A stretch of DNA of 63,900 nt, counting the filler, from Dugesia japonica (lineage: Eukaryota): the NCBI GenBank assembly GCA_001938525.1. It is 6 parts of 6 records of this genome, joined end to end, with 100 filler letters (N's around TTAATTAATTAA, not from the genome) between each part and the next. Parts side by side here need not be neighbours in the genome. Positions count along the whole stretch, not along the records: positions 11,617 to 21,212 come from MQRL01627914.1; 5 more parts are not named here. One strand, 5' to 3'. Position numbers and translations under genes: made by a program. This document shows positions 15,900 through 63,825 of this stretch, piece by piece (position 1 is the first letter of the stretch; every line of letters starts with the position of its first letter). The notes beneath the pieces were generated by a model. That model was not told the DNA's origin and searched no databases. It was given only the letters and a program-made list of their open reading frames with translations.

Positions 15900-16563
15900 T
15901 TAGGATTGTTTTCTTTGCTTAGTATTTTTTCATGTTTTTTCCATGTAGTGTAGAATTGTAGCTTGTTCGAAGTGTTTTCCATGTAATGTGATGTTGTTCT
16001 GATGAAATTTTGTGTTTGCGTTGAAAGTGTTTGAAAATTTCACTTTCATTTTGTTTCAAATGTTCCTTAACTCTTGTGTGGATGATTCTGCATGTTTTAC
16101 CTATATATCTTTCTTGAAAAATGGTGCATATCATTTTATAAGTGACATTTTTCTTATTGCAAATATTTCTACAATCACAAATGCATTTAGGACCACAAAC
16201 ATTTTGTCTTGGTTTCTGTAATTGAATGCCCAAAAGTAATTGCGTTTTAAAAATAATTCTTGGATAGGGTTTGTGTTTAGCATTTTTTATTATATTCTGC
16301 ATGATTTGGCTGCATTTCTCATTAATAAAAGGTCATTTAATAACTGTGTTTGTTTTTGGTTTGATTTTATTTTGTTTTGTATTTAAAGATAAATATTTCG
16401 ATATAATTTTATTTGGATAGCCATTATTTGAAAATTTATATTTTATCAACTTCAGAGAGATCAATTTTATTTCTTCATTTGAAGATAGTCTCTCGGCTCG
16501 AATTCTTTCCCCGTTAATTATACCAATTTTCTGGATTATGGTAGTATTACTACTCCAAGGTAA
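15900..16563 (-). mobile_element. Penelope-like retroelement 3' part (RT thumb + GIY-YIG endonuclease)
   Basis: PWSSNTT...ERIRAERLSS...FSNNGYP followed by CDCRNIC-NVTYKMIC..YIGKTCR..RVKEHLK. The upstream RT part is at 21139-21212. Confidence 0.85.
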
Positions 16564-16817
16564 TGTTGCGATCCCACCTGAGTTGAGTGAAAAATAACGT
16601 GGCTGGGGAAAAACAGCCCTCAGGGGAACCCTTTCAAGAATTTCCCCTACCGTCCCTGGGGTAGGTTTTCAGTTTATGGCGGTTGACCTTACTCTTAATG
16701 GAAGGTACACACCAATAAACCTTTTTATTCGGGTTCAATGATTTTTCCCTTATAATTATCCTCAAAAGACAGAAAGTACAATTCTGGTTACAGACATTTT
16801 ATTAAAAGAAAAAATAT

Positions 16818-17200
16818 TTAAAGTAAATCCAGCGCTTTTGGATCTAGCCATTGGTTGGCTTCCGTTACCACAAGATTGAAAGCAGCAATTTCATCATCAT
16901 CATTCCACTGCACTACATTTGGGTTGCCAATTTGTCGGGATAAATCAGCAATATACTGCTTTAAAAACTCAATCTTTCTCTGCAGTAATTGTTTATTTTC
17001 AGTTTTTAATGCTTTGGTTTGAATGGCAAGGTCATTTTGTTTTTTTATAATTAAATCCCATTTTTCTATAAGCTGGTCACGTTGGGAGAGATGTTTTAAA
17101 AGGGCTTTGTCGGCTTTGCGCTTTAGGTGCCTTTCAAGAAGGAGGCGACGCTGAATGCGGTGGCATCTTCTAAGTTTGTTGGGAATGTTAATTCGTGGCA
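16818..17200 (-). CDS. LTR-borne accessory ORF 4 (basic coiled coil + conserved FLKQYI..GNP..VQW.D..AAFN..QWLDP domain)
   Basis: Open frame after acceptor ATTTAG|TG, AATAAA downstream. Homologous to ORF 41601-41828. Confidence 0.65.
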
Positions 17201-17324
17201 CTAAATAAATAAACATTAATAGAGAACAATGATGGTTATTATTATCGAATTCATTATGAATGAGGCCAGCAATTGGAAATCAAGATTAAAGTGTACAAAA
17301 TTTTATTTTTTCAAGGTATCAAGA

Positions 17325-17692
17325 TTAAACACGGGGATTAGGTTTGGTCTGGGGGCCCTTATCAATCATAAGAGGCTCCAGATAGGATTTCGTTTTCAAT
17401 AACAAAATGTCTTTGACCAGTTTATTCTCACGGTCATGGCTGGACCGGATGATTTCCGCGAGCGATTCTAACTGGGCCTTACAGACTCTCTCTTGGTCTT
17501 TTACCACCCTCATCTCTTTGCAGACATTCACACATTTAGTTTTGTACCGTTTTACCTTAGCGTTGGCGGTCGCGATCTCCGATTCCCATCGCCTCTTCGC
17601 TAATTTATATAGGTCCCAGGTGATCTCTTTATCTTCGCTATCCTCACGTAATTTTTTGGTTGGGGCCTGAGATCGATTCAAAGATGAGTGCA
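17325..17692 (-). CDS. LTR-borne accessory ORF 3 (coiled coil, unknown)
   Basis: Open frame HSSLNRSQ...KPNPRV after acceptor TTTCAG|TG, AATAAA after the stop. Confidence 0.55.
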
Positions 17693-17841
17693 CTGAAATA
17701 TAAATAACGTAAAATTTAAGCTTTTTAGCGAGGACTGAGTAGAGTTCAAAAATAAGACAAAATATCATAAGACACTGATTATTTAATGCTGAAAAAACAG
17801 AGAACACAAATCCTTTTTTTGTATAATTTCAAACAGAAAGT

Positions 17842-18284
17842 TCACATCAATACATCAAGGTGTTCTTCTTCGGCGTTTTCATTGTTGTTGCTAATCATCG
17901 CATTCCGGACACCCCACAGATTATTTTGTATGAAGGAAGTCAGTTGTGCAGTAGNNNNNNNNNNNNNNNNNNNNNNNNNNNNNNNNNNNGAGCCGTCAAG
18001 CCAAACCCGTTCTATCTGTGGTGTCGCATCGGATCGTTCGAACGAGAGTGGTGCTGGAGGGATAACAACCCGATACCTTCTCGGTCCACACCAACTATAA
18101 TAAGCAGCCCGCTCTGTCGAGTCCCATTGTCTTTCATTAGCGGCTTGCTCTGGAGATAAATTAGTATGATCAACCAAAACATCGGCATCTCGGTTGTATG
18201 GGTTCCTATATCTCTTAAATGTAGTCCGACCCGAATAGACATCCAGATATACTTCCTATTTAGAGTCCATAAGTGTTTCTTTTT
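17842..18284 (-). CDS. LTR-borne accessory ORF 2 (unknown, one premature TAG)
   Basis: Acceptor TTACAG, then KETLMDSK*EVYLDVYSGRTTFKRYRNPY...YYSWCGPRRYRVVIPP...LDVLM. Confidence 0.5.
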
Positions 18285-18464
18285 CTGTAAATACAGCTAA
18301 TGAGGTTTGTATCTACTAGAGGGGACACATTTAGATAATATTCAAAAACAATAAATGGTAATTAAAATAAAACACAAATTTTAATTCATAAACAAAATAC
18401 GACACAACAATTCGATTAACTACACTTTAAATCAGTGGATTCACCAGGGTTTCCGCTACAGTGG

Positions 18465-18647
18465 TCATTCCTCATTCATATCCACCCTAGGTTTAAGGGG
18501 AAACATCTCGACGAAACATTGAAGGTCAGTCTTTTCGGGATGCTCCACCCTGCCCTTTGTTAAATAGTGGATTATTAATTGTATTAGACGAGTAGATCGT
18601 CTTTGTTTTCTTATCCGACGTAGGGTATCACGCAATATCGCTGGCAT
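18465..18647 (-). CDS. LTR-borne accessory ORF 1 (60 aa, Arg-rich)
   Basis: CTAAC branch point, pyrimidine tract, CCCTAG|ATA ATG, then MPAILRDTLRRIRKQRRSTR. Confidence 0.4.
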   Translation of the reverse strand: MPAILRDTLRRIRKQRRSTRLIQLIIHYLTKGRVEHPEKTDLQCFVEMFPLKPRVDMNEE

Positions 18648-18899
18648 TATCTAGGGAAAATAAAACAGTAAAATTGTTAGAATAATCTTGACATTATTTC
18701 CATATCTTTTACCCGAGTGTTTTAGGTTATTACACTATATTTACAGGGTTGATACCGACGATAATAATTATTACCTAAAATTGCGGCTAATAAAAAAATT
18801 GATATTTACTACTGATTATGACTTTTGCTACGTTATCTCATTTCATACAGAATTTGATTAAGNGAGTCCGGGTTTTCGCCAACACATGGTAATAGGTAA

Positions 18900-19989
18900 T
18901 CCAAATCATTGTGGATTTTAAAATGATAATACTCGATATTGATTTATGAATAATAACAGGCCAATAAGAACTACGCCGACAACCCAGTTAATAATATTAT
19001 CCATGATAGCGCAATAGTAACGATAATATGGGCAATGATACTCATCATAATAACATTGGTAATAGCTATCAAGTCTAACATTGAAAATTCATGATGATGG
19101 AACTAATCACCCAATTGTGGATGTAATAGCGTTGTTTAACAGATCAATGCAAGTAATATTAATAGAATATTAATACAAATCGTGATTTGTTTATTATAGT
19201 CATATAACATTATAAAGGAGAATATAGAGTCTTCAATAATCTTTTTCACATTTCCGCCTAACCTGGTTGCTTGGCAACTTAGTTAATCTTTACATCTCGT
19301 GTTGCAGCGGCACACCTATTATAAGTAGCTAGTCATGTGGATTTCACAACAAGTCATACATTTTTCAGCTAGTGGAATGCACACCATTACTTGACATTTC
19401 CTACCATCCTCATTTCGACAACAGATTCATTGGAGTTATTATTCTAAATCACTAGGTTGACGATACGGTGTACTAATGCTATGTGAGTTTGCGACATAAT
19501 GTGGAATATTCAATAGTGGAAAAGGGACATTTACAGTAATTCTCTTGCTGGTGTAAAACATGGGAATTCAACAAGAAAAATCGTGAACCTTTTATTGGCT
19601 GCTAATAGGAAATAATTGGATAGTCTGATACCGTTCTCTTACTAGTAGAGTAGGTATAACATTACTGATATTATCGTGAAGAAATCTATCATCAGAAAAC
19701 TCTATTCTTTCGGTAAATTCTGGTTGGACACAAAACATTTGGTTGCTAATAAATCTTGATTTTAGATTATGAAATTATTCAAATCAATTGCTGAAACAAA
19801 GAAAATTACTGTTAGCATCTCAATGGATTATAGTGGATTACAGAACGGTTTGTTAAAGATAAGTATACTGGAATTCCCGTGACTTTATGATATAAAAATA
19901 AAATTTTGATAATTTGTTTTTCTTGTGTTAATCGTCTTATTTACTGCTAATTAATAATGAAAATACAAAACTAGAAAAGTGAGTTTCAT
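18900..19989 (-). pseudogene. Decayed secreted or membrane (env-like) ORF
   Basis: MKLTFLVLYF signal-like start, Cys-rich middle (CCRNEDGRKCQVMVCIPLAEKCMTCC), hydrophobic C-terminal segment (SIIAHIIVTIALSWIILLTGL). Many stops and frameshifts. Confidence 0.35.
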
Positions 19990-20482
19990 TTTATTTTGAA
20001 TCAGATGAAAATGATTGTGAAATTATATTTATTCTAATNNNNNNNNNNNNNNNNNNNNNNNNNNNNNNNNNNNNNNNNNNNNNNNNNNNNNNNNNNNNNN
20101 NNNNNNNNNNNNNNNNNNNNNNNNNNNNNNTTTTTCTTCTGCAACGGGTGTCTGTGGAGGAATTCAAATCGAGTAGTTTTATGAGTGACTTCTTCTTCGA
20201 TTTATTTCGTTAAGGAAATAGTTGGTTTGTCCGGCAGGTACTTTAATTTCTTTCTTTAATGACCACGGCGGAATCAAAATTTCTAAAGTAGATGGTTTAA
20301 AATGCGACTAAGTTTTTCTTTCAACTAACTGTATGAGATACTGACGGTAACTTATATCGATGATTCTCCAAAAATTTGAATTAATATACTTTCAAGGTTG
20401 GCGATAATACTTGTTCGATTTAATTTTGAAGCTAAGAGTTCTAAAAAAATTTTGTGTGTTTTTCCGCTAAAGTTAGGGGTCC

Positions 20483-21060
20483 TTTTATAGGGTTTTCTTT
20501 ACACCCGATTGTGGTTTATTTTTAGATGGATGTTTTCTGGTTTTTATTGGCGTTAGTGTTGTTTTTCTAAAATTTTCTCCAAGTTTTGGTGCCATGATTG
20601 GCAGCTATCTTTATCATGGCACCTGACATCTGTTTCTTTGTTCTATTTTTAATTTCAGGTTTTCTATTGGCCGGATCTTGGAAGTCTTGCAGTACCCTTC
20701 TGAAAGGTGGCATGCTTTCCTTCTTGGGAATTTTAATTGCACCTGGATGTTTTCTCTTCATTTTTTCTTGTCCGGGTTCTTTCTGACTTCCGGGAACAAA
20801 GTTATCTGGTAAAAACAGAATTTTCTTCTAATTTCCTTCTTTTTTATTTTAAAATTAATTAATTTTCTTTTGTTAATTAATTGTTTTCCAAATTGTTTTT
20901 TCTTCGTTGTTTATTATTAAATTAGTAATTTGCTTAATTTGAATATAATGATGGCTGGTTGTATTGTTCATATTTATCAAATTTCTTCATTTAATTCTTG
21001 GTTTAATGATTGTCCTTGTTTTTCTTCTTTCTGTTAGTGATTTTTTTCCGGGGATATTGG
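20483..21060 (-). promoter_or_regulatory. U3-like Pol II promoter: four CCAAT boxes and a TATA box
   Basis: CCAAT (-) at 21056-60, 20666-70, 20597-601 and 20546-50. CTATAAAAGG with TATAAAA at 20489-20483. Confidence 0.6.
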
Positions 21061-21138
21061 CGTAGCTCACTTTCCCTATTTTGCCTTTAATGACCCCCGT
21101 GGTTTTAATTCTCTTCAACTGGGTGTTTCACTCCAACA

Positions 21139-21212
21139 GTAATATATATCCACTGTGAAATGGTTTCATATATAATTGGGTAGTTAATATTTCACCAGGT
21201 TTCTTTTGGATT
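21139..21212 (-). mobile_element. Penelope RT fragment (upstream partner of 15900-16563)
   Basis: IQKKPGEILTTQLYMKPFHSGYIL matches uninterrupted Penelope copies at ~25826 and ~44395. Confidence 0.85.
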
Positions 21213-21312: not shown

Positions 21313-22635
21313 TAATGAAGAATCTGTTAATGTAATTAAATTTAAACCCAAAACATTAGAAATTGAAAATATTAAAGATAAAATGACTTTGACGATTTTA
21401 AAAAAATATGAAAGCATTATAATGAAAGATAAATGGGAAATTGGAAAAACTAATATTGTAAAACATGAAATAATAACAAATAGTAAACCAATTGCAATTA
21501 ATCCTAGGCGTCAACCTTATCACTTAATAGTTAAAATGAAGTAAAATATTAAAGAAATGGAATGATAAGTAAATGTGACTCCCTTTGGAATGCTCCTTTG
21601 GTTTGCGTAAAAAACGAGACAATGATGAAAAACAACTTTGTTTTGATTATAGGTTGTTAAATGAAGTTACAGAAAGATTAATTTTTCCTATTCCAAACAC
21701 TAAAGAAATGATGGATGTTTTACAATCCGTTTCAAAGGTCTGTAAATTACAAAAATTACAGAAAAGTCGTTTGAAAAGCCAATGGAAAAGGATAAAACAT
21801 TATACTTACAAACGATAGTAAGTTATTAATATTTTGTTGGGTATCCTTTCTTCTTGATAATAGAGGCTTGGAATTAATGAACTTGCTACATAAGGAAATG
21901 AGTATATTATACCATATCTTTTCTAGGACTTAGTCTTTCATGTTGAAACCGTCTAATTCTTTGGGAGGGACTACGACTATATGTGTGAAACATTGATTTA
22001 TCACTGAAGACAACATGTGCCCCTTTATCAACATTCCATTGCTGTTTAGATATCGCCCATTGCAATCGTCTGTTCCTATGCTTATCATTGACCAACGGCT
22101 TGCTAACAGCCGGATGACTTCTTAATTCATACTTATTGTGAATGCGGTTAATTAAAACTTCGACATTAATGTTACAAAATGATGGTCGTAAATGGCAAGA
22201 AGGGTATAAAGAAATCGATTTCATTAAATAGAACTTAAGCTTTGTAAGAAATTATAAATTTAAATTGATTTAAAATATTGTTTATACAATTCACGATAAA
22301 ATTTGGATTCCAATAGAAATGAGAATTAAATTTATTGATTATACACATCAATTATTATGTAATGCTGGATCGAAAAAAGTTCTCAAATATATTTTGAGAC
22401 AATTTGTTATGGAAAATAAAACTGATATAATATATGAGACTGTACAAATCTGTGAAAAATGTTAAAAAAAAAAGAAAACTGTAACTTCAAAAACAAAAGA
22501 AGACATAATTAAAATGAAGCCTTCAGATACATTTGAAATTATACATATTGATTTCTGTGGACCGTTTAAAACCGCTAGAAATAGTAAAAATTCTATATTA
22601 GCTATTATAGATCAATTTAGCAAGTATATTTTAGT
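21313..22635 (+). pseudogene. Ty3/gypsy pol remnants (RT N-terminus; integrase zinc finger and core)
   Basis: GKTNIVKHEI..PRRQPYH, WNAPLVCV, LCFDYRLLNEVT..FPIPNTKEMMD. After a Tc1 insert: YTHQLLCNAG..CEKC, FEIIHIDFCGPF..ILAIIDQFSKY. Confidence 0.8.
21723..22165 (-). pseudogene. Tc1-type transposase fragment inserted in gypsy pol
   Basis: AVSKPLVNDKHRNRRLQWA...HVVFSDKSMF (Tc1 linker and first catalytic D motif). Confidence 0.75.
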
Positions 22636-23614
22636 ATATGGATACATCAGCACTGGCTCACCCCTCCCAGCCGACAAAGTGAGTTAGTAATGAAGCATTT
22701 TGATTAGTCTTTACTATTACGAAAAATTGTTTTTCAAATTCGGGTTCGAACGTCCGAATTTTTGCTGGTGAATGTAAAAAATTCGAATTTTCGGTTCGAG
22801 ATTTTTCGGTCAATTGTTATTTTACAATTTCAAGTTTGGTCTTATTGAACTACGAATTAAACACTGAACCTTTTTTGCATAGGGTTTGCTGTAGAAATAT
22901 GCTTGGTTCTTTCAGAAAAGGTATGTCAGCACTGGCTCAGTCNACTATGATTCATCAATTTATCTACCAACACGTATCCTATGGTCATGGAAATGATGGC
23001 ATTCAATTCAAAATATAATACTGAACATTTTATGTATAGAGTTTGCTGTAGAAATATGTTTATTTCAAAAGATAGAAAATTGCCAGCAGCCATGTCTCAC
23101 TGAGGAAATAACTGATCGATTTCAAGAATTGCTCAAATTAGCCATTCCCGTTGAACGATTTGACCAAAATGGCCTGAAACAGCCAAAAATTGTCCTCATT
23201 CGACTTTACCAAATAATTTACCAACCAAAAAGCTGATAAACTTTTGCCACCTAAAAAGCCTAAAGAATTTTCTCAACTAAAAAGCCTAAAATTTGAAAAT
23301 AATTCGCAAAGCTTTTCAAAATATGATTAAAAGTTATGTAATTGCAGAGAAATTTTTCTCGCCAAACTCCTGAAAAATTTAACACCAATTAATTCTTTAA
23401 AAATAAAATTTTACCGATTAAATCTAATAACATAATTTGTGTGCAAAAATTTTCCCAACTAAATACACAAGGAAAAACAAACCAAATTAACTAATATTAC
23501 TTAATATGATGCAATTTTAAATTTCCAAATAAATGAATTAGGATTGTTTCATTACATCACTAATTCTTAGGGCAGGTATTTGTGTGTAGTGTTGACCGCC
23601 ACTATTCCTCTACT
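22632..23614. mobile_element. Non-autonomous repeat ending in a Polinton-type terminus
   Basis: Ends CCGCCACTATTCCTCTACT. Shares AAAATTTTCCCAACTAAATAC and the terminus with 27000-27866. Internal repeat shared with 42290-43200 and 50880-51240. Confidence 0.55.
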
Positions 23615-31327: not shown

Positions 31328-32312
31328 ATGTATGTCGGAAAAACTAAATTATTGCTTTTTCACCACAACATTCCACATGTTGTTGTTGAAAGCTCTACAT
31401 TTGAAGAAATCTACCCAAAAGATTCTATAATTGAGTATGCTGGACAACAAATTGAGTTCAATATTATTGGTTCAGATAATCATTACTTGGGTTTGAATGA
31501 TATGTTGAAGATACAAATGATACGTAAATACAAAAGGCGGTAATTGAACCAGCATTGAACTTTGAATCGGATACAAAAAACACTTTTCTTGAAGTCATTG
31601 GCTATCATAAAGAATATGACAAGTGTAAAGGTTGGATTAAAACATTTGCAAAGCTAACGCTCTGTGGTGCACTAATCTGGATTTCTTTGACCAACCTAAG
31701 TATATATTGCCAGGAGTCAATGTAAAAATTAAATTGACGAGAAATGTGGGTTCGGCAATTTTCAAATATACTAAAGACGTTAAAGAAACAGTTGAGATGA
31801 ATCCACAACCATACATTATAGAAGCAAAATTGGAAGTGCAATGTGTTTGTGTTGATCAGTTGGTTATGATTGAACATCGTTAAGGATTGGAACATCAAAA
31901 TTCAATCTACTCCAGAAAATAAAAATCGTGCTTTTTATAATTCTCATTCTGAAATTTCGGTGTAAAGTCCATTTGCTCGGCGAGAAACGTTGATCTTCAA
32001 GAAACATATACTACTGACTTTAATACCGACTATACTGAGGCATATGTTCAATCGATTATTTGTAATATGAGTCTGTTAAATGTAGATCGAAACAATAGTA
32101 TTACAATGAAGAAATTGAAAGACTCGTATACGTTTTTCACTTTAGTATTGGCTCCAAACTTTGCAGTTGATCAACCGCAATTGAGAAAAACCGGAAATTT
32201 CAAGTTGGATGTGCGATTTCATAAAGCCTTGACGGAATTTGTGAAAGTTTATGCATATGGAGTATTTGATTCGGAAATTCAAACCACCAATAATGGAGTA
32301 GTGGTTGTATAA
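31328..32312 (+). pseudogene. Polinton/Maverick double-jelly-roll major capsid protein (group-1 type), decayed
   Basis: VESSTFEEIYP..QIEFNIIGSDNHYL, DFFDQPKYILPGVNVKIKLTRN, and C-terminal YTFFTLVLAP..KTGNFKLDVRFHKAL..YGVFDSEI. Preceded by a core-protein tail RGSG..KRRR..TIF*. Confidence 0.8.
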
Positions 32313-32379
32313 ACAATACATACATGTATGAGTGTATTGCATAGTATGAAGTATGTTTTGTTTTTTATAAAGAGAATTT

Positions 32380-32745
32380 ATTGATTGATAGTAATTTTTA
32401 GATTGAAACTATACTGAAACGTGATTTGGACAGAAGACGATTCAAAGAAGTGTATCCACTGGAACGATTACCGGACTTTTTACAAAACGGATCCTATGTA
32501 ATCAATACACATAACTCGAATTTGGATTGCTATTCATCTCAAATTAAATATTATTCGTGTATTTGATCCAATGGGTATGTTTTACCCACTATTGCTGGTA
32601 ACAACATTTGAGCGTATGCAACAAGGTGTCGAATACAATCAAATCATGTATCAGAATCCATTGACGTTTATATGTGTCAATATTGTATTGAATGACTTAA
32701 AAGCCAGTATAAACNATTTTAATGTGATTATCAATAAAATTTTAA
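32380..32745 (+). pseudogene. Polinton adenain-like cysteine protease, decayed
   Basis: FKEVYPLERLP..YVINTH..WIAI..FDPMG..YNQIMYQ...IC pattern. Confidence 0.65.
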
Positions 32746-33197
32746 ATGCCTGTGTTTTTTATTGATTATGAATCCTTTTTGGATAATAATGCCAATTATT
32801 TAATTAAAGAATTATGTATAATAGATGTGAATAATATTTTTCAACCATTTTATTACATGTTTGCCATGATGGAATCAATGAGTAGTTTATCAAAATTTGA
32901 TCAAACAACTAATGAGTACTTACGGCTCTGGCATCATCATCTCAGGTGGATTGATGGAAATTCAAACTTTGATTCATCTAGTATAATCAATAACTTGAAA
33001 GCAATTCCAAAGGATGCGCTGTTTTATGTGAATCATCAAGTAAATGGAAAGAAAGTTAATACTCTCAAAGACCTTTTCCCGAGTCTTCGAATCGTTAATT
33101 ATATTTCATTATATTTTCTGTCCATATTATAATCATGGAGATTATTGTGCTTACAAAAAATGTTTAAAACTGTGTGTACATTACCTGTCATCATGTA
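32746..33197 (+). pseudogene. Polinton-associated DnaQ-like exonuclease-fold ORF
   Basis: FIDYESF..YLIKELCI..HHLRWIDG..FYVN. Frameshifted tail CAYKKCLKL. Confidence 0.5.
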
Positions 33198-35330: not shown

Positions 35331-35649
35331 TAGTTGATGGAATGTTTGTTTAAATTAGGTGAAATTCTTTATTTTTTGTTCAAATTAAATTAATTTTTTT
35401 GTTTAAACCAACCCATCAATCCACAACCTCAACAGGTATGGACACCAGGTCCCATGTACAATACCCCGATTATGAGTCCACCACAAGTTCCTAATATGGC
35501 ATTATTAACAGAGAGCAATTTATCGACTATTGAACGAAGAGTGACTGACCAAAACTTGCGCTCTCTGAATAACCAAATCGCCGAAGATGATAAATTAGAA
35601 ACCCAAACCGCATGCATGATGATTTCTCAGAGAGCGAAACTATTACAAA

Positions 35650-35940
35650 AAAGGATAAAATAAACGGAAGATGGGTAATAGCCATTATCGATACAGGAGC
35701 AAGTACGACGTTAGTCCACAAAAGAATATTAGAAGATTATCGACTACTCCGAATAACAATTACTAAAGGAGTTATCATCACGGCCTCTGGAGAAAAAATC
35801 TCACCCATTGGGGAAGCATTATGTGCAATAGAAAGTGGCGGAACCCGTCTATGGCATAAATTACAAATAATGAATAAACTGACTTTTGACTGCTTATTGG
35901 GATTGGATCTCTTACCACGCCTATTCTCGGAGGGAATATT
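35650..35940 (+). pseudogene. Retropepsin aspartic protease domain 1
   Basis: AIIDTGASTTLV..TASG..CLLGLDLL. Confidence 0.85.
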
Positions 35941-36259
35941 AGATTTGAGGAAACTAACAATACGGGAAAATCACGATCGGGAATATGCACCGGTAGGTTA
36001 TCAGAAAACTCGAATAATAACCAAACAAAAACGTTCGCAGCAATGGAATCAACTAACACCTAACCAGCAGCCATGACTCTCATCAGGCGGGATAATCAAA
36101 ATAACTCAACTCAAGATCATCAGAAAATTACCAACACCGCCACCATGATAAGAAACGATTGGATACGGTTTCAAGAACGGGAACCCAGATGGAAAAACAA
36201 AAAGCAGCATGACCTAAATGGTAACCTTTCAGATGTGGTATGCGCAAGCCTCAGCGGCG

Positions 36260-36885
36260 GACCAGTATTAACAATTATGGTTAAAGTTAACGGTAGACCC
36301 ACAACGGCCTTATTAGACACAGGAGCGACCATCTCTTTGCTATCGATAGAAGAAATCGCAATAACAGAGTATAAAAATATACCGCCCACCAATACCACAG
36401 CAGATTTGGCGAACGGAAGTAGTCTTAAAATAATTGGGGAATTAATCTGTGAAGTGGAATATCAGGATAACAAAATTAAGCACAATATGATCATAGTAGA
36501 GATGGCTGGACAGTGTATTTTGGGTACCGATATTCTTCCAGTTTTAATGAAAAATGGAATATTGAACTTTTTAACGTTACGATTACAATCATATACTCAC
36601 GTTAAAGATCACGAAGTATTCACAACAGAAGAAATCTTGGTGCCTAGTAGATGCCAAATGTATTGTGTAGAAAGTACCAAAAGTGCATACNNNNNNNNNN
36701 NNNNNNNNNNNNNNNNNNNNNNNNNNNNNNNNNNNNNNNNNNNNNNNNNNNNNNGAGGAATAACCACGGTCAATAAAAGCGGAGAAGTACCAGTCAGCTT
36801 GGTCAACTTCACTGAGAAAGAAATCACAATCAAACCGAATTCCAGAATGGGTACACTAACTCCCATCGAATCGGAAACAGACTAG
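36260..36885 (+). pseudogene. Retropepsin aspartic protease domain 2 + dUTPase-like spacer
   Basis: ALLDTGATISLL..LANG..CILGTDIL, then EILVPSRC...VPVSLVNFTEKEITIKPNSRMGTL. Confidence 0.85.
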
Positions 36886-38559: not shown

Positions 38560-39825
38560 GAGAAAATTCTGTATTAGTCATTCCTAAAGCAAGACGAGAT
38601 ACATTACTCGAGCAATATCACATTGGAGGACTAGGAGGAGACATGTCCCATAAGAAAACCGAGTCAAAACTAAGGCAGAAATATTACTGGCCACACATGA
38701 CGGAATCGGTAAAGNNNNNNNNNNNNNNNNNNNNNNNNNNNNNNNNCAGAAGAGGAACTGGTAAACGCGTGAAAGCATTATTCAAAACCAATAGCCGTCC
38801 CCGCCGCACCCATGGAAATAATAGCTATGGACGTAGTTGGACCGTTACCACCAACGCTGAGTGGAAACATTTATATACTAACAATCATGGATTACTTGTC
38901 GAAATTCTCAGAGGCATTCCCTAGGAAAAATCAGAAAGCAACCACCATAGCGGACATCTTGGTACAAAAATTTTTCAGCAGATATGGCACACCCAAGAAG
39001 ATATTAACCGATCAAGGAAAAAACTTTATGAGAAACATATTAGCAGAGATATCGAGCTTCCTCAAAATACACCAGTTACGAACATCACCTTATCATCAAC
39101 AAACAGATGGATTAACGGAAAGATTTAATAAAACTTTAATCAATATGCTGTCTAGTTCTGCACAGAAGGAACAGAATAATTGGGACAAACATATTCAGAT
39201 GTGTCTATTTGCATATCGAATGAGTGTGCATCCTGCCACTAAATACACTTCATTTGGTCTTATGTACGGTAGAGAGTGTAACATGCCAATTGATTTAGAG
39301 TTTCAGCCACCTATAACTCAATACCAAGACGAAACGGATTTCGCTGCAAATTTCAAAGAAACTATGCAGAAAATATGGAAACAGGCCAAGGAGAATGTAG
39401 GATTTTACAAAGAGAGCTATAATGATTTGCACGATAGAACGGCAACGCAACACTCATTTAAAAAAGGCGACATGGTATTGATCAATTTACCGGACATTTG
39501 TGTTGGCACTACATCGAAATTAAAAAGGCCATGGCAAGGACCATACGAAGTAATCGAAGTGACTGAAACCAACTTCAAAGTTCGAAGGAAGGGGAATCTA
39601 TTAGAGAAACCAAAAATATACCACGCCAACCTATGCAAAAAGGCAGCAACGACGGAAGAAATTGCGCCAACCACAAGTATTGCACTCATTACGACGGAAC
39701 ATAGAAGGCCAGGTAGGCCACGTAAGTCGGAAAATCTAGTGTCAAATATATCGCATAGTTACCCATTACGATCACAACAAGCTATGATGATACTTGAGAA
39801 GCATCAAGCCCAGTATTCGTATTAA
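38560..39825 (+). pseudogene. Gypsy integrase (zinc finger, DDE core, GPY/F, C-terminal AT-hook)
   Basis: YH..LRQKYYWPHM, IAMDVVGP, ILTDQGKNF, DGLTERFNKT, WQGPYEV, RRPGRPRK. Confidence 0.95.
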
Positions 39826-39851
39826 GTCAGTTAAGCCATCGAGTTAAAGCA

Positions 39852-40280
39852 ATGGGTACCAAGATAATCTATCCTATAATTCCACGAGGAACACAGACAC
39901 CGGTACTTGAGAACTGTTGTACGCACTTCTCTCGAGTGACATGCCCAATCTCACCAAATCTAATCGAGGCAAGTTGCCTACCATGCATACGGAAAATTCA
40001 ATCAATTTTAAAATCAGCGTTGCGGGAAATTGCTGGTCGCAGATTTGGGTTGTTGCAACAAGATGAGCTCAGTGGAAGACGTTGTAAGAAAATGCATGAT
40101 AAGCTGACAGTTCAAGTGCCATTGACACCCGACTAATTACATACTCTATGCGAACGTTGTGTCAGTATTTATAACGAAACCCTCACTCGAGCTATTGAAA
40201 ATTTCCATACAATATTAATAATATGGGACTGATTGGTATTATGGTCTTAACCAGTGGACCCCCCGCCATGGAGTGGTTTA
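39852..40280 (+). CDS. Accessory ORF, Cys/His domain copy 1 (one internal stop)
   Basis: CTHFSRVTCPI..CLPC..C..VQVPL..*LHTLCERCVSIY..FHTILIIW. Confidence 0.6.
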
Positions 40281-40378
40281 GAATCATTATTAAGGAAAAG
40301 AAGTCTCAGCGAGAACGCTGAGTCTGAAGAAGATGGAAAGGGGAACTAGCGGAGAAAGATGTTAATTCAGAACTGAAA

Positions 40379-41773
40379 ATGGACATGCAAACAAAAGACG
40401 ATGAAAAGATAGAAACGGAGTTACAGAAAATAACGAAGTTTTTGAAAGATGACGCATTAAAATATGCAAACAAACAAAGAAAAGAAAGGAGAATGAAAGA
40501 TAGTTTGGCTTCACGTCGGGAGTTTCATACTAAAATCGGCAACGAAAACACGGACACTAGAAATATTGCACTAGCTACCAAGGAATTGAATTGTTCAGAT
40601 AAACTAGTTACGCCTAAAATAACTAAGACAACAAATATTAATCATCTATCTCAAACTCAAACAACATTATCTATGATTAATGATAAATCAGTTACTATAT
40701 CACGATACATTACAATTGTATCTTTTGGTTTAGATAATCGAACGCGTCGACTACTTGCAATCGAGGCTATGAACGCCACTACATGTTATACGATCAAGTA
40801 CCAGGGAAGCCGGACACCAAGATCCGAAGAAAGTTGTAATCACATTACCCATATAACCTGTCCGCTGTCGGCACATCAATTGGAAGAGAAGTGTTCACAA
40901 TGTGTTAAGCAAACACAAATGATATTAAAAGAGGCATTAAAGGCCATTTACGATCAAAGAGCATGGTTATCCAAAAAAGAAAATTGGTTCAGGAAAGACT
41001 GTGATGAGTCACGAATTAAAACACCAATTCAAGTACCAATTCGTCAATCTGTTGTCAAAAAATTATGCATGCCATGCACAGATATTTATAGTCAGGAATT
41101 ATTAGCGTCAACTCATGTATTTCACCATACATTAGTACAATGGAACTGGATTCGAGTTTATGAACCATTGGAGATCCAATTGCCATGGGTCATGGTCGAA
41201 CCAACTATCCAAAGTAAACAAAAGCTAAAAAATATGGCATCACTAGACATACAATCAGATAAATTGGCTCGTAGGAAATCGAAACCAATCAATATCACGA
41301 ATCCTCAGGAAGGGTTACAAAAACAAGTAAAATTGATGAGAGAAGCATTTCAAGGTCAATGGGATAGAATGGAGGAAAAAGAAAGACAATTAGTCAGAAT
41401 AACGCCTGGAACGGTGAGAAAAATGAAAATGACATTAGTACAAGATGGGGTGGATCGAACAGAACCAAGACAATCAGAAAACAAATTATCACAAGAAAAC
41501 AAGAACGTGTTTACATTTGGAAATCATAGTCAAAATATCTCTGTTGTTATGGGCAGTAATCAACACAAGTTGGGACTATGGTATATAAATTTGGTTAACA
41601 ATGAAAATTATCAGAAATATTGGAAGAGGACTTCCTATAGCACTATGCATTATGAGGAAAATCGATTTCCTCAAGCAATATATATCCGACCTTTTTCTTC
41701 AATTAGGAAACCCTTCCTGGGTCCAATGGGACGACAACGACGATGTCGCCGCCTTCAATTTTTTGATAGCTGA
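40379..41773 (+). CDS. 464-aa accessory ORF containing Cys/His domain copy 2 and coiled coils
   Basis: CNHITHITCPL..CSQC..C..IQVPI..LCMPCTDIY..FHHTLVQW. Long uninterrupted ORF in AT-rich DNA. Confidence 0.7.
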   Translation: MDMQTKDDEKIETELQKITKFLKDDALKYANKQRKERRMKDSLASRREFHTKIGNENTDTRNIALATKELNCSDKLVTPKITKTTNINHLSQTQTTLSMINDKSVTISRYITIVSFGLDNRTRRLLAIEAMNATTCYTIKYQGSRTPRSEESCNHITHITCPLSAHQLEEKCSQCVKQTQMILKEALKAIYDQRAWLSKKENWFRKDCDESRIKTPIQVPIRQSVVKKLCMPCTDIYSQELLASTHVFHHTLVQWNWIRVYEPLEIQLPWVMVEPTIQSKQKLKNMASLDIQSDKLARRKSKPINITNPQEGLQKQVKLMREAFQGQWDRMEEKERQLVRITPGTVRKMKMTLVQDGVDRTEPRQSENKLSQENKNVFTFGNHSQNISVVMGSNQHKLGLWYINLVNNENYQKYWKRTSYSTMHYEENRFPQAIYIRPFSSIRKPFLGPMGRQRRCRRLQFFDS

Positions 41774-41828
41774 TCCAGACCAGTGGTTAGACCCTGGCGT
41801 ATTAGACGAAATAGAAATGTCATCTTAA
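41650..41828 (+). CDS. C-terminal part of LTR-borne conserved ORF
   Basis: RKIDFLKQYISDL..GNPSWVQWDDNDDVAAFNF..QWLDP aligns with the ORF at 16818-17200. Confidence 0.7.
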
Positions 41829-42055
41829 TAAATGTTTTCGAGTACCTTTGGTTTAAATTTTATGTGTAGGTTAAGGGAAAATCGTGAACCCAAATAAAAA
41901 GGCCTGTTGGCGCATACCTCCCATTAAGAGAGAGGTCAACCACCATATGCTGAATACCTAACCTGGGGGCGTTAGGTTAATTCTTGAAAGGGTCCCCTGA
42001 GGGCTGTTTTTCTACAGCCACACTTTTCTTCATCCAACTCAGGTGGCACCCCAAC

Positions 42056-42110
<55 letters not shown>
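42056..42110. repeat. (AAT)n microsatellite (others at ~50705-50770 and ~51718-51910)
   Basis: Direct reading. Confidence 0.95.
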
Positions 42111-61673: not shown

Positions 61674-62440
61674 ATGAGTAATTTAGTTTGGAAAAAAGAT
61701 AAGGTGGTTTTTAAAAATAAACTTTTTCCTAGTAATTTTCGATTGTTGATAATTGGATCTTCTGGATGTGGAAAAAATGTTCTCTTAACACAAATGTTAC
61801 TTACACCCGGTTTTCTCGATTATGATAATTTAATGTTTTACTCAACTACAATTAATCAATTTGAAGTGCAGTTAATAAAACACGGATTTTTAAATGGGTT
61901 AACAAAGCAAGAAATTTTATTAATGTTTGAGAAGCAGGCGATCGTTCCAAATTCCTGTGACACCCCAAAAGAAGTTGTAGATTTTTTCATTCAAAAGAAA
62001 TTTGTAATAAAAAAACCTCAATCAATAGAAATATTCCTAAGCATTAAATCAAGTGAAATTGTTCGTTGTGATACTTTAAAAAAGGATAAAAAAATCTTGT
62101 AATTTTTGATGATGTTGTAAATGAAAAAAATCAACAAATTCAAAAAAGGTATTTCACGCGAGGTCGACATTCAAATTGTAATGTAATTTACATTTCCCCA
62201 ACATATTTTCACCTTGATAAAAATTCGATAAGAAATAATGCAAATTGTTTTATATTTTTTAGATTAAATAAAAGAGATCGTGATAGTGTTTATAGTGATT
62301 TATTTTCTTCTGCATTTGAAACTAAAGATGATTACGACTATGATAAAAATTTCCACTGGAGAAAACCCTATACATATTATTATTTAAATCAATTAACAAA
62401 TAAAGTTACAACCGATCTTTTTGCTGAAGAAAATGAGTGA
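61674..62440 (+). pseudogene. A32/FtsK-like packaging ATPase (frameshift near 62095)
   Basis: Walker A IIGSSGCGK, LVIFDDV, FTRGRHSNC, SIRNNAN. Confidence 0.9.
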
Positions 62441-62930
62441 AAGAAATATTACAGAAGAAGAATTAAGAAAATTAGTAAATTCAAATCTTAGTAGAACAGT
62501 TAAAATTAATGGTAAAAATTATTGGATAGGGAAAAAAGTAAAAGATGAAATTAAAAAACGTCAAGAAAAAGAGGGTGGTTTTATTCCATTGTTGGCTTTA
62601 ATACCTGCATTACTTTCTTTTCTTACTGGCGTTGGCAAAGTCGCAGCTGTCACTGGCGCAGTTGCAGGCGCCGTTAAAAATTCGCGAGAGGCATATAATA
62701 GAAAACTTGAAACTGAAAAGTTGGAATATGAAAAATTACAACGAGAAAAAGAACCCCCCACTACTACTAATATCCCAACTACTAATATCCCAACTAATAA
62801 TAATAAGGAAGTTGAATATATAAGTGAAATACATGGTCAAGCGATTTATAAATATTCAAAAAATCAAAATTTATAACCTTCGAAAGAATTAAAAAAAGGA
62901 GGGGGATTATATTTGAGACCTTATGGTGAG
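62433..62930 (+). CDS. Virion core protein, adenovirus pX-like
   Basis: KEGG|FIPLLALIPALLSFLTGVG (protease site + hydrophobic helix), downstream KGGGLYLRPYG. Confidence 0.65.
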
Positions 62931-62964
62931 TATGGTGATGGAATTTATTAAAAACCTTATTAAA

Positions 62965-63825
62965 ATGGCGAGCGAAGCGATTAAAACTTATGTTTTAGTA
63001 GAATCTAGAATTGAAGAATTAAAACAAATAATTGAAAAAGAAGAAAAATATAATGAATATTTTTCTAGTAAAGTTCTTCAATCTAAAAATCTTCTTTCTT
63101 CTCTTGCTTTTCAATAATCTCCACTGATTTCAGCTTTACAACAATCTGCACAACCAAATCTAAATCTAAATCCAAATCCAAATCCAATTCCAGATCCATG
63201 TCCAACAACAAATCCATTTGAAAATAAAAATCCATTTACTCCTAATATAGAATTACACCAAAGTATAAATTTACCCTCAACATTAACTCCAGAAATTTCA
63301 AATGAAATTATTTTAGAAAAAACATATATAAAAATAAAAATTAAAGAAAGAGAAATATATTTAGTTACAGAAAATGAAATACCATATTTTTTTAAAATTC
63401 CAGATACACTTGTTCCTTATTCAGATGGAGTAATGAATTTAATTCTTGGAAATGTAAAAGAAACTGATGATATAAATTTAGAAGATTTAAATATTTATTT
63501 GAATGGATTAAAGATTTCTCATGCTCACAGCAGCGCCTATATAAAAATGTTGGAAAAAAAATAACTCCACCTGAAAAAATAGAGCCAAAAACTCCAGAAA
63601 GAAAAAAAAATAATTGAAACACAACCATTATTTCATCCATTACATCAACCGGTTGAGGGGCAAGGGAACCCAATTGATTTATTTGAAAAATTAATAGTTT
63701 TACTTTCAGCTAAAAAAGCTGGTCATGAAAATGTTGGCTCANAAATAAAATCAGTTTGTAAAAAATTAAAAAATGAAAAATTAATTTCAAAAGAGAAATA
63801 TAAAAAATATCAAAAATATTTTTAA
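62965..63825 (+). pseudogene. Conserved Polinton ORF with C-terminal L..L..LL....AG[HN]...I...L helix
   Basis: PIDLFEKLIVLLSAKKAGHEN..IKSVCKKLKNEKLISK. Several stops. Confidence 0.55.

Follow-up and report, generated by a model that had tools for sequence, protein, structure and literature searches.

Four putative accessory genes within a mobile unit of Dugesia japonica, probably a giant solo Gypsy LTR

Four short reading frames lie in a row on the minus strand of a Dugesia japonica locus (assembly GCA_001938525.1), and raise the question of whether they are expressed as alternative last exons from a single promoter, and what kind of DNA carries them. A preliminary description of the 63,900-nucleotide stretch analysed here (the window, filler included) had proposed that one leader is spliced to one or another of these frames, possibly completing a split A/TG start codon at the junction, in the manner of adenovirus late or complex-retrovirus expression. 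That account had missed the location of the array inside a 4,575-bp insertion. The best overall explanation, to which we give a probability of roughly 50%, is that the insertion is a solo long terminal repeat (LTR) of a Gypsy retrotransposon, with accessory genes that the repeat's own promoter would express as alternative last exons.

The insertion, its class and its surroundings

The features that bear on the nature of the insertion are as follows.

16564–21138, minus strand: mobile unit of 4,575 bp with TGTTG...CAACA ends, likely a solo Gypsy LTR (contig joints; ends read directly)
16560–16563, unstranded: left target-site duplication, 4 bp, GTAA (read directly)
21139–21142, unstranded: right target-site duplication, 4 bp, GTAA (read directly)
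15900–16559, resuming at 21143–21212, minus strand: Penelope-like repeat, host of the insertion, with a GIY-YIG remnant (profile and contig joints)
35594–39825, plus strand: Gypsy-type pol of a related element, with two protease domains, reverse transcriptase (RT) and integrase; decayed, with N gaps (domain scan)
41654–42056, plus strand: homologous 3' end with the C-terminal part of the fourth cassette (67% identity over 423 columns)

That 16564–21138 is a mobile insertion is virtually beyond doubt. Contigs from four public runs (four studies, one possibly of the source sample) were placed on 16400–21212, and the empty site of the unit is present in contigs of all four. The best empty-site joint, from 16559 to 21139, is carried by 15, 12, 9 and 3 contigs in the respective runs, and 13 of the 15 joints listed skip the whole unit, a further 141 joints lying outside that list. 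The Penelope-like repeat is interrupted by the unit and resumes beyond it; its GIY-YIG remnant was detected at E 0.0011, below the Pfam cut-off.

Several properties of the insertion are those of an LTR. The termini are of the TGTNR type (TGTTG at 16564, CAACA at 21138), and a short target duplication, GTAA on both sides, accompanies the empty site. Further, the last 417 bp of the unit, including the end of the fourth cassette, match 41654–42056, directly behind a Gypsy pol and in the same orientation as its protease, RT and integrase, an association that concerns these 3' 417 bp only, at 67% identity. Since the end of the insertion recurs directly behind a Gypsy pol, sequence comparison makes it probable that a Gypsy retrotransposon left the unit as a giant solo LTR, in which the cassettes run in the sense direction. 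The match at 41654–42056 is the sole substantial one to the unit elsewhere in the window; the second element has only 417 bp in common with the unit, the remainder being missing, and is itself truncated upstream of its protease. Scans of the DNA and of the locus came back empty, and the sequences covered contain no full-length copy bearing paired LTRs, primer-binding site and polypurine tract, a point against the LTR reading. No internal direct repeat was found within 16564–21138, and an Rfam scan of 12 kb gave a single match at E 0.58, below cut-off.

TGTNR ends with a 4-bp duplication are also common to Ginger transposons, as described in the accessible part of PMC2836005, and the unit might instead be a non-autonomous DNA element or an internally deleted derivative, Ginger-like, with captured exons. 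The ends of the unit do show weak inverted similarity (47% ungapped over 45 nt, P=0.004 in one of five lengths tried), and neither a primer-binding site nor a polypurine tract was seen with it. The perfect inverted repeat, however, extends to 5 bp only, against 40–270 bp in Ginger1 and 50–180 bp in Ginger2 (same portion of PMC2836005), the target GTAA is neither CCGG/CCGT nor RTATAY, the same terminus stands behind an RT-bearing pol, and the domain scan found no transposase. We consider this alternative quite unlikely, and rejected membership of Ginger itself, since the duplication length fits but repeat length and target sequence fail.

Other sequences in the window were recorded alongside. 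Within the unit, a short terminal motif at 16605–16643 collects most RNA reads of distant relatives; at this 3' end of the repeat it likely represents a cis element that is conserved. In the second element, two aspartyl-protease domains stand in tandem ahead of the RT (35594–36885, plus strand), and behind the integrase (39798–41773, plus strand) two ORFs have a duplicated Cys/His-rich domain in common (33% identity over 94 aa, E 1e-18), for which the Pfam search returned no family. The Gypsy fragment at 21314–22687 (plus strand) was discarded as the internal region of the LTR, since it is on the opposite strand and the target duplication and N gaps stand between it and the unit; it is a separate, decayed piece of pol, broken by an ORF on the other strand (21907–22251) that resembles part of a Tc1/mariner transposase. 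Polinton/Maverick remnants occur at 59932–63564 (plus strand), with double-jelly-roll, PLA2-like, integrase and A32-like ATPase hits, and at 31953–33132 (plus strand), with no family hits. AT content, ATT repeats and this mixture of Gypsy, Maverick and Penelope elements give the DNA a planarian-like look. A divergent host Six3/6-like homeobox exon lies at 56303–56779 (minus strand), its closest matches at 77% and named matches at no more than 60%.

Four reading frames and the constraint upon them

The array itself consists of four cassettes, listed in the order in which they would be transcribed.

18465–18650, minus strand: cassette C1, 61 aa, phase 0, acceptor 18650, own ATG at 18647 (codon 2), no family
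17842–18284, minus strand: cassette C2, 146 codons, phase 1, acceptor 18284, own ATG at 18270 (codon 5), no family
17325–17692, minus strand: cassette C3, 121 aa, phase 1, acceptor 17692, opening AG/TG CAC, coiled-coil-like
16818–17200, minus strand: cassette C4, 126 aa, phase 1, acceptor 17200, opening AG/TG CCA, predicted 84-residue helix

The preliminary description of four ORFs, each behind a pyrimidine tract and AG and each with its own stop, holds for frames, tracts and stops but not for the openness of C2, which in this copy is closed by an in-frame stop at 18256–18258 and contains a gap of 35 N (17955–17989). The poly(A) hexamer, previously credited to three cassettes, is found in all four spacers (P=0.24–0.33 per spacer and about 0.005 jointly, by a mononucleotide shuffle that probably understates A-runs). 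The cassettes are spaced 124–180 nt apart, and the frames have a GC content of 39–45% vs 25–31% in the spacers. Two ORFs of at least 110 aa are observed where shuffled sequence yields 0.056 on average (P=0.002), in a count in which the removal of N broke the C2 frame.

The cassette frames are very probably coding in the element family, to judge from how related sequences differ. Between C4 and its homologue, 39 of 66 differences over 53 codons fall at position 3 (P=1.6e-5), with dN at 0.28 and dS saturated, and the end of the homologue is a few codons at most from that of C4. Among RNA reads of relatives, 14 of the 23 cassette places listed are at position 3 (P=0.006), based on few reads and on the best-supported rows (24 of 40 rows shown, 28 outside the list); the share in these rows is 6/7 for C1, 8/15 for C3 and 0/1 for C2. 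That the differences of relatives are mostly at third positions argues that the frames are under coding constraint.

The window copy, on the other hand, is decaying, as the stop in C2 attests; contigs covering 18256–18258 differ from it at this codon in all four runs. With that stop codon left aside, 18 cassette places were classified among the best 40 of 1,034 contig differences, and within these 11 are at codon position 1, a count that speaks against the reading favoured here. Four places are silent, all in the phase-1 frame of C2 and mixed among copies, and the other 14 are replacements, at which 98–100% of the X9 depth differs from the window copy, a pattern that fits private decay of this copy after insertion.

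Could these frames be coding remnants, chained into one mRNA or left from a former polyprotein, with acceptor and TG patterns arising by chance? C2, C3 and C4 are in phase 1 at their acceptors, three cassettes as first reported, and C1 is in phase 0; the agreement of three cassettes in one phase has, by simple arithmetic, a chance probability of 1/3. Hexamers are common in this DNA, the 649 nt that lie upstream of the TATA box containing 10 of them, and GT donors are present inside every frame; these points speak for such chaining. Against it, the coding signal or GC content is kept up to the stop of each frame and the spacers are AT-rich, and the C4 homologue terminates near that same point, a few codons away at most; we hold it to be extremely unlikely.

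Protein relatives are scarce. None were found for C3 or C4 in a collection of 5.8 billion proteins, compared at near lengths only, nor for C4 among 1.84 billion protein representatives. A Pfam scan, which was the sole family search for C1, assigned no family to any cassette and gave sub-threshold coiled-coil hits only, as in C3, where they are weak. In the Atlas, C3 falls into unnamed clusters at 0.91–0.92 with low recognition, and C2 into no cluster. The predicted structure of C4 comprises one long helix of 84 residues and one short helix; that of C2, at a pLDDT of 42, is unusable.

Also inside the unit, the segment 18900–19790 (minus strand) holds a strong acceptor-like site at 19790 together with broken frames, short ones, that include hydrophobic stretches (Kyte-Doolittle 2.0–2.4 over 19 aa), and is possibly a decayed fifth cassette, encoding a membrane protein.

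Promoter, acceptors and start codons

Three further features, all recognized by motif, would supply the transcript.

20482–20671, minus strand: promoter-like block with a TATA box at 20489 and GCCAAT boxes at 20671, 20602 and 20551 (motifs only, function putative)
20131–20460, minus strand: putative ATG-free leader with candidate donors at 20410 and 20389 (motifs; N gap 20039–20130 adjoining)
16724–16729, minus strand: AATAAA, candidate poly(A) signal of the LTR, some 165 nt short of the unit end (conserved in the second element)

The TATA box lies downstream of the three GCCAAT boxes, some 650 bp in from the unit's 5' end, and no ATG occurs between it and the N gap at 20130. Transcription would start near 20460, about 30 nt past the TATA box, and the ATG-free leader would be spliced onto one of the four acceptors, and the poly(A) hexamer that comes next would terminate each mRNA. 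For C1 and C2, translation would begin at their own ATG; for C3 and C4, a leader ending in A would, if splicing proceeds in this way, be the likelier provider of the ATG. The proteins, two coiled coils and two orphans, might be element-encoded helper or anti-host factors, which is a guess. If the TATA box and the AATAAA at 16729 mark the U3/R and R/U5 borders, then R would measure about 3.7 kb, with the array inside it; alternatively, the TATA box may be an internal promoter within a long U3.

The TATA box and donor-like motifs reported earlier are indeed present, at 20489, 20410 and 20389. That these donors end in A, which had been offered as a clue, carries no information because 9 of the 13 GT dinucleotides in the leader follow A. 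Nor are the two donors supported as such, because one X1 contig joins 20303 to 20468, across the segment that contains both, and we think their use unlikely. Summed contig depth over the donor bin is 5–37 times below that over C3 and C4, depth being no measure of copy number and given no weight as evidence. One X1 contig leaves out a 56-bp piece of the promoter block with one CCAAT box (20507–20562).

When 242 AGs are ordered by an ad hoc score, the C3 acceptor comes joint 3rd and those of C1 and C4 are tied at 5–11, while that of C2 is outside the top 25. GC steps coincide with the cassette acceptors, and the acceptor of C4 has 146 nt free of AG upstream, a distance of at least 120 nt being reached at 6 of the 171 T-rich YAGs of the window. 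TG follows 10 of the 243 AGs of the unit (a background of 4–5%), and occurs in phase 1 at both of the cassettes that have no nearby downstream ATG (2/2, a post hoc count): the first downstream ATG of C3 is codon 60 and C4 has none, which bears out the preliminary description on this point.

In raw RNA from four runs of three studies, of which 6–26% was read through, 18, 157, 25 and 106 reads matched the unit (306 in total), all partial fits and from distant relatives only, with no read at 99% identity or above and 10 at 95–99%. These reads contain no joints and no start or end peaks, at a depth of 0–0.7 in the acceptor and donor bins, an absence that is uninformative rather than negative. None of the 15 contig joints listed falls at a cassette acceptor, and X1–X3 contigs, presumed to be RNA, cross the acceptors unspliced. 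Overall, we lean slightly towards expression of the cassettes as alternative last exons from one promoter, and advance the assembly of a split ATG at the splice junction as a tentative proposal, rather less likely to be right than wrong.

The start codons could be provided in other ways. In each of the four frames an in-frame ATG falls somewhere from codon −25 to codon +5; for C3 it is at codon −25 (17768) and for C4 at codon −5 (17216). Moreover, an alternative C3 acceptor at 17788, followed by the in-frame ATG at 17768, ranks 1 of 242. Given this acceptor and ATG upstream of C3 and the ATG upstream of C4, a split ATG is not required, and the LTR-borne genes may be read without one, from their own ATGs (18647, 18270, 17768 via 17788, and 17216), reached by way of other acceptors, by leaky scanning or from separate small promoters, or else behind a short phase-1 coding leader. 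In favour of this, MDG1 elements carry small accessory ORFs (according to the available portion of PMC11952523) and env of Drosophila Gypsy elements is also joined to short peptides (bioRxiv 10.1101/2023.08.03.551782, in the sections at hand). Yet the ATG at 17216 lies within a T-rich tract with about 130 nt upstream free of AG, so that cis-splicing cannot deliver it; C1 would lose its frame behind a coding leader in phase 1; and the two TG starts, at 4–5% each, would have to be coincidence. We judge this set of explanations somewhat unlikely.

A start codon might also come from a spliced leader. Flatworm spliced leaders end in ATG and planarians trans-splice (PMC12582326, accessible text), and the close spacing of the cassettes, with a poly(A) hexamer and then an acceptor in each interval of 124–180 nt, is what an operon-like polycistron resolved by trans-splicing would present; C1 is, further, in frame with a leader ATG. 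A leader that ends in ATG nonetheless reads phase 0, which meets a stop after 4 codons in C3 and after 25 in C4, and for these two cassettes a spliced-leader ATG was rejected on that ground. Trans-splicing could thus serve only C1 and C2, and agreement of the leader ATG with the ORF is found for C1 only. As an account of the array, it seems to us very unlikely.

Known systems and implications

Expression by alternative last exons from an LTR-borne promoter, as favoured here, has partial counterparts in known systems. Coding frames in or overlapping the LTR occur in MMTV (sag) and in lentiviruses (nef), one per LTR and in U3, and complex retroviruses and the adenovirus late region reach several 3' frames via alternative acceptors. 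In contrast to sag and nef, which belong to vertebrate viruses, the present unit has four frames, apparently downstream of the promoter.

The closest likeness in start-codon usage is to errantiviruses of the springer subclade, Drosophila Gypsy elements with an accessory frame whose start codon is partly provided by a spliced leader; their env is spliced to the AU of the start codon (bioRxiv 10.1101/2023.08.03.551782, as far as that text is accessible). The split-start mechanism thus has precedent in Gypsy elements. In springer, as that source describes it, a single env frame lies between pol and the 3' LTR, with a split AU/G and mapped junctions; the present unit differs in having four non-env frames inside a presumed LTR, with a putative split A/UG and no junction among the reads and contigs covered. 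The retroviral flavour of the preliminary description survives in this form, in that a Gypsy LTR is the most likely identity of the DNA around the array and a split start has been published for a Gypsy env. The array would likely operate as errantiviruses and complex retroviruses do when they express accessory genes by splicing.

Among Gypsy elements with additional coding capacity, Burro/GYPSM1 of planarians shares with the unit giant size (an internal region of up to 25 kb and a total of more than 30 kb), accessory ORFs and Smc-like coiled-coil motifs, according to the portion of PMC6431247 available. Its hallmark there is a giant polyprotein in which env is placed between gag and pol, together with BIR, ankyrin or MATH domains; compared by that description, its extra domains reside in a polyprotein of about 4,900 aa and in accessory ORFs, not in an LTR array. 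BIR, ankyrin, MATH and env gave no match in the frames scanned, the related element being truncated upstream of its protease. Ogre elements of plants have LTRs of 1.9–6.5 kb, the size range of the unit, and, in the partial descriptions at hand, carry their one or two extra ORFs in the internal region rather than in the LTR. MDG1/412 elements, set beside the unit by the description in the accessible part of PMC11952523, are Gypsy elements with short accessory proteins (70–110 aa) under purifying selection, encoded upstream of gag. A prior description of a multi-gene LTR of the present kind was not found in the open-access literature, surveyed mostly as title-level listings. The novelty would consist in four orphan frames within the terminal repeat of an otherwise Gypsy-class element. 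The complete picture, of a Gypsy family whose LTR is a unit of four genes or more, with an R of about 3.7 kb, alternative last exons and an A-ending non-coding leader that completes two AUGs, is doubtful when all its parts are taken together.

The usual view is that LTRs encode no proteins and that solo LTRs are inert promoters. If the proposed reading is true, each solo LTR of this family would, independently of gag-pol, be a mobile unit that expresses orphan proteins within an animal genome. The genomic RNA would then have to read through four poly(A) sites, and how a multi-kilobase R with several poly(A) sites is reverse-transcribed would be a puzzle. Should the splicing part of the reading be wrong, the unit would still deserve curation as a terminal repeat of unusual length that bears ORFs; should it be right, a style of regulation typified by complex retroviruses would operate in an invertebrate Gypsy lineage.
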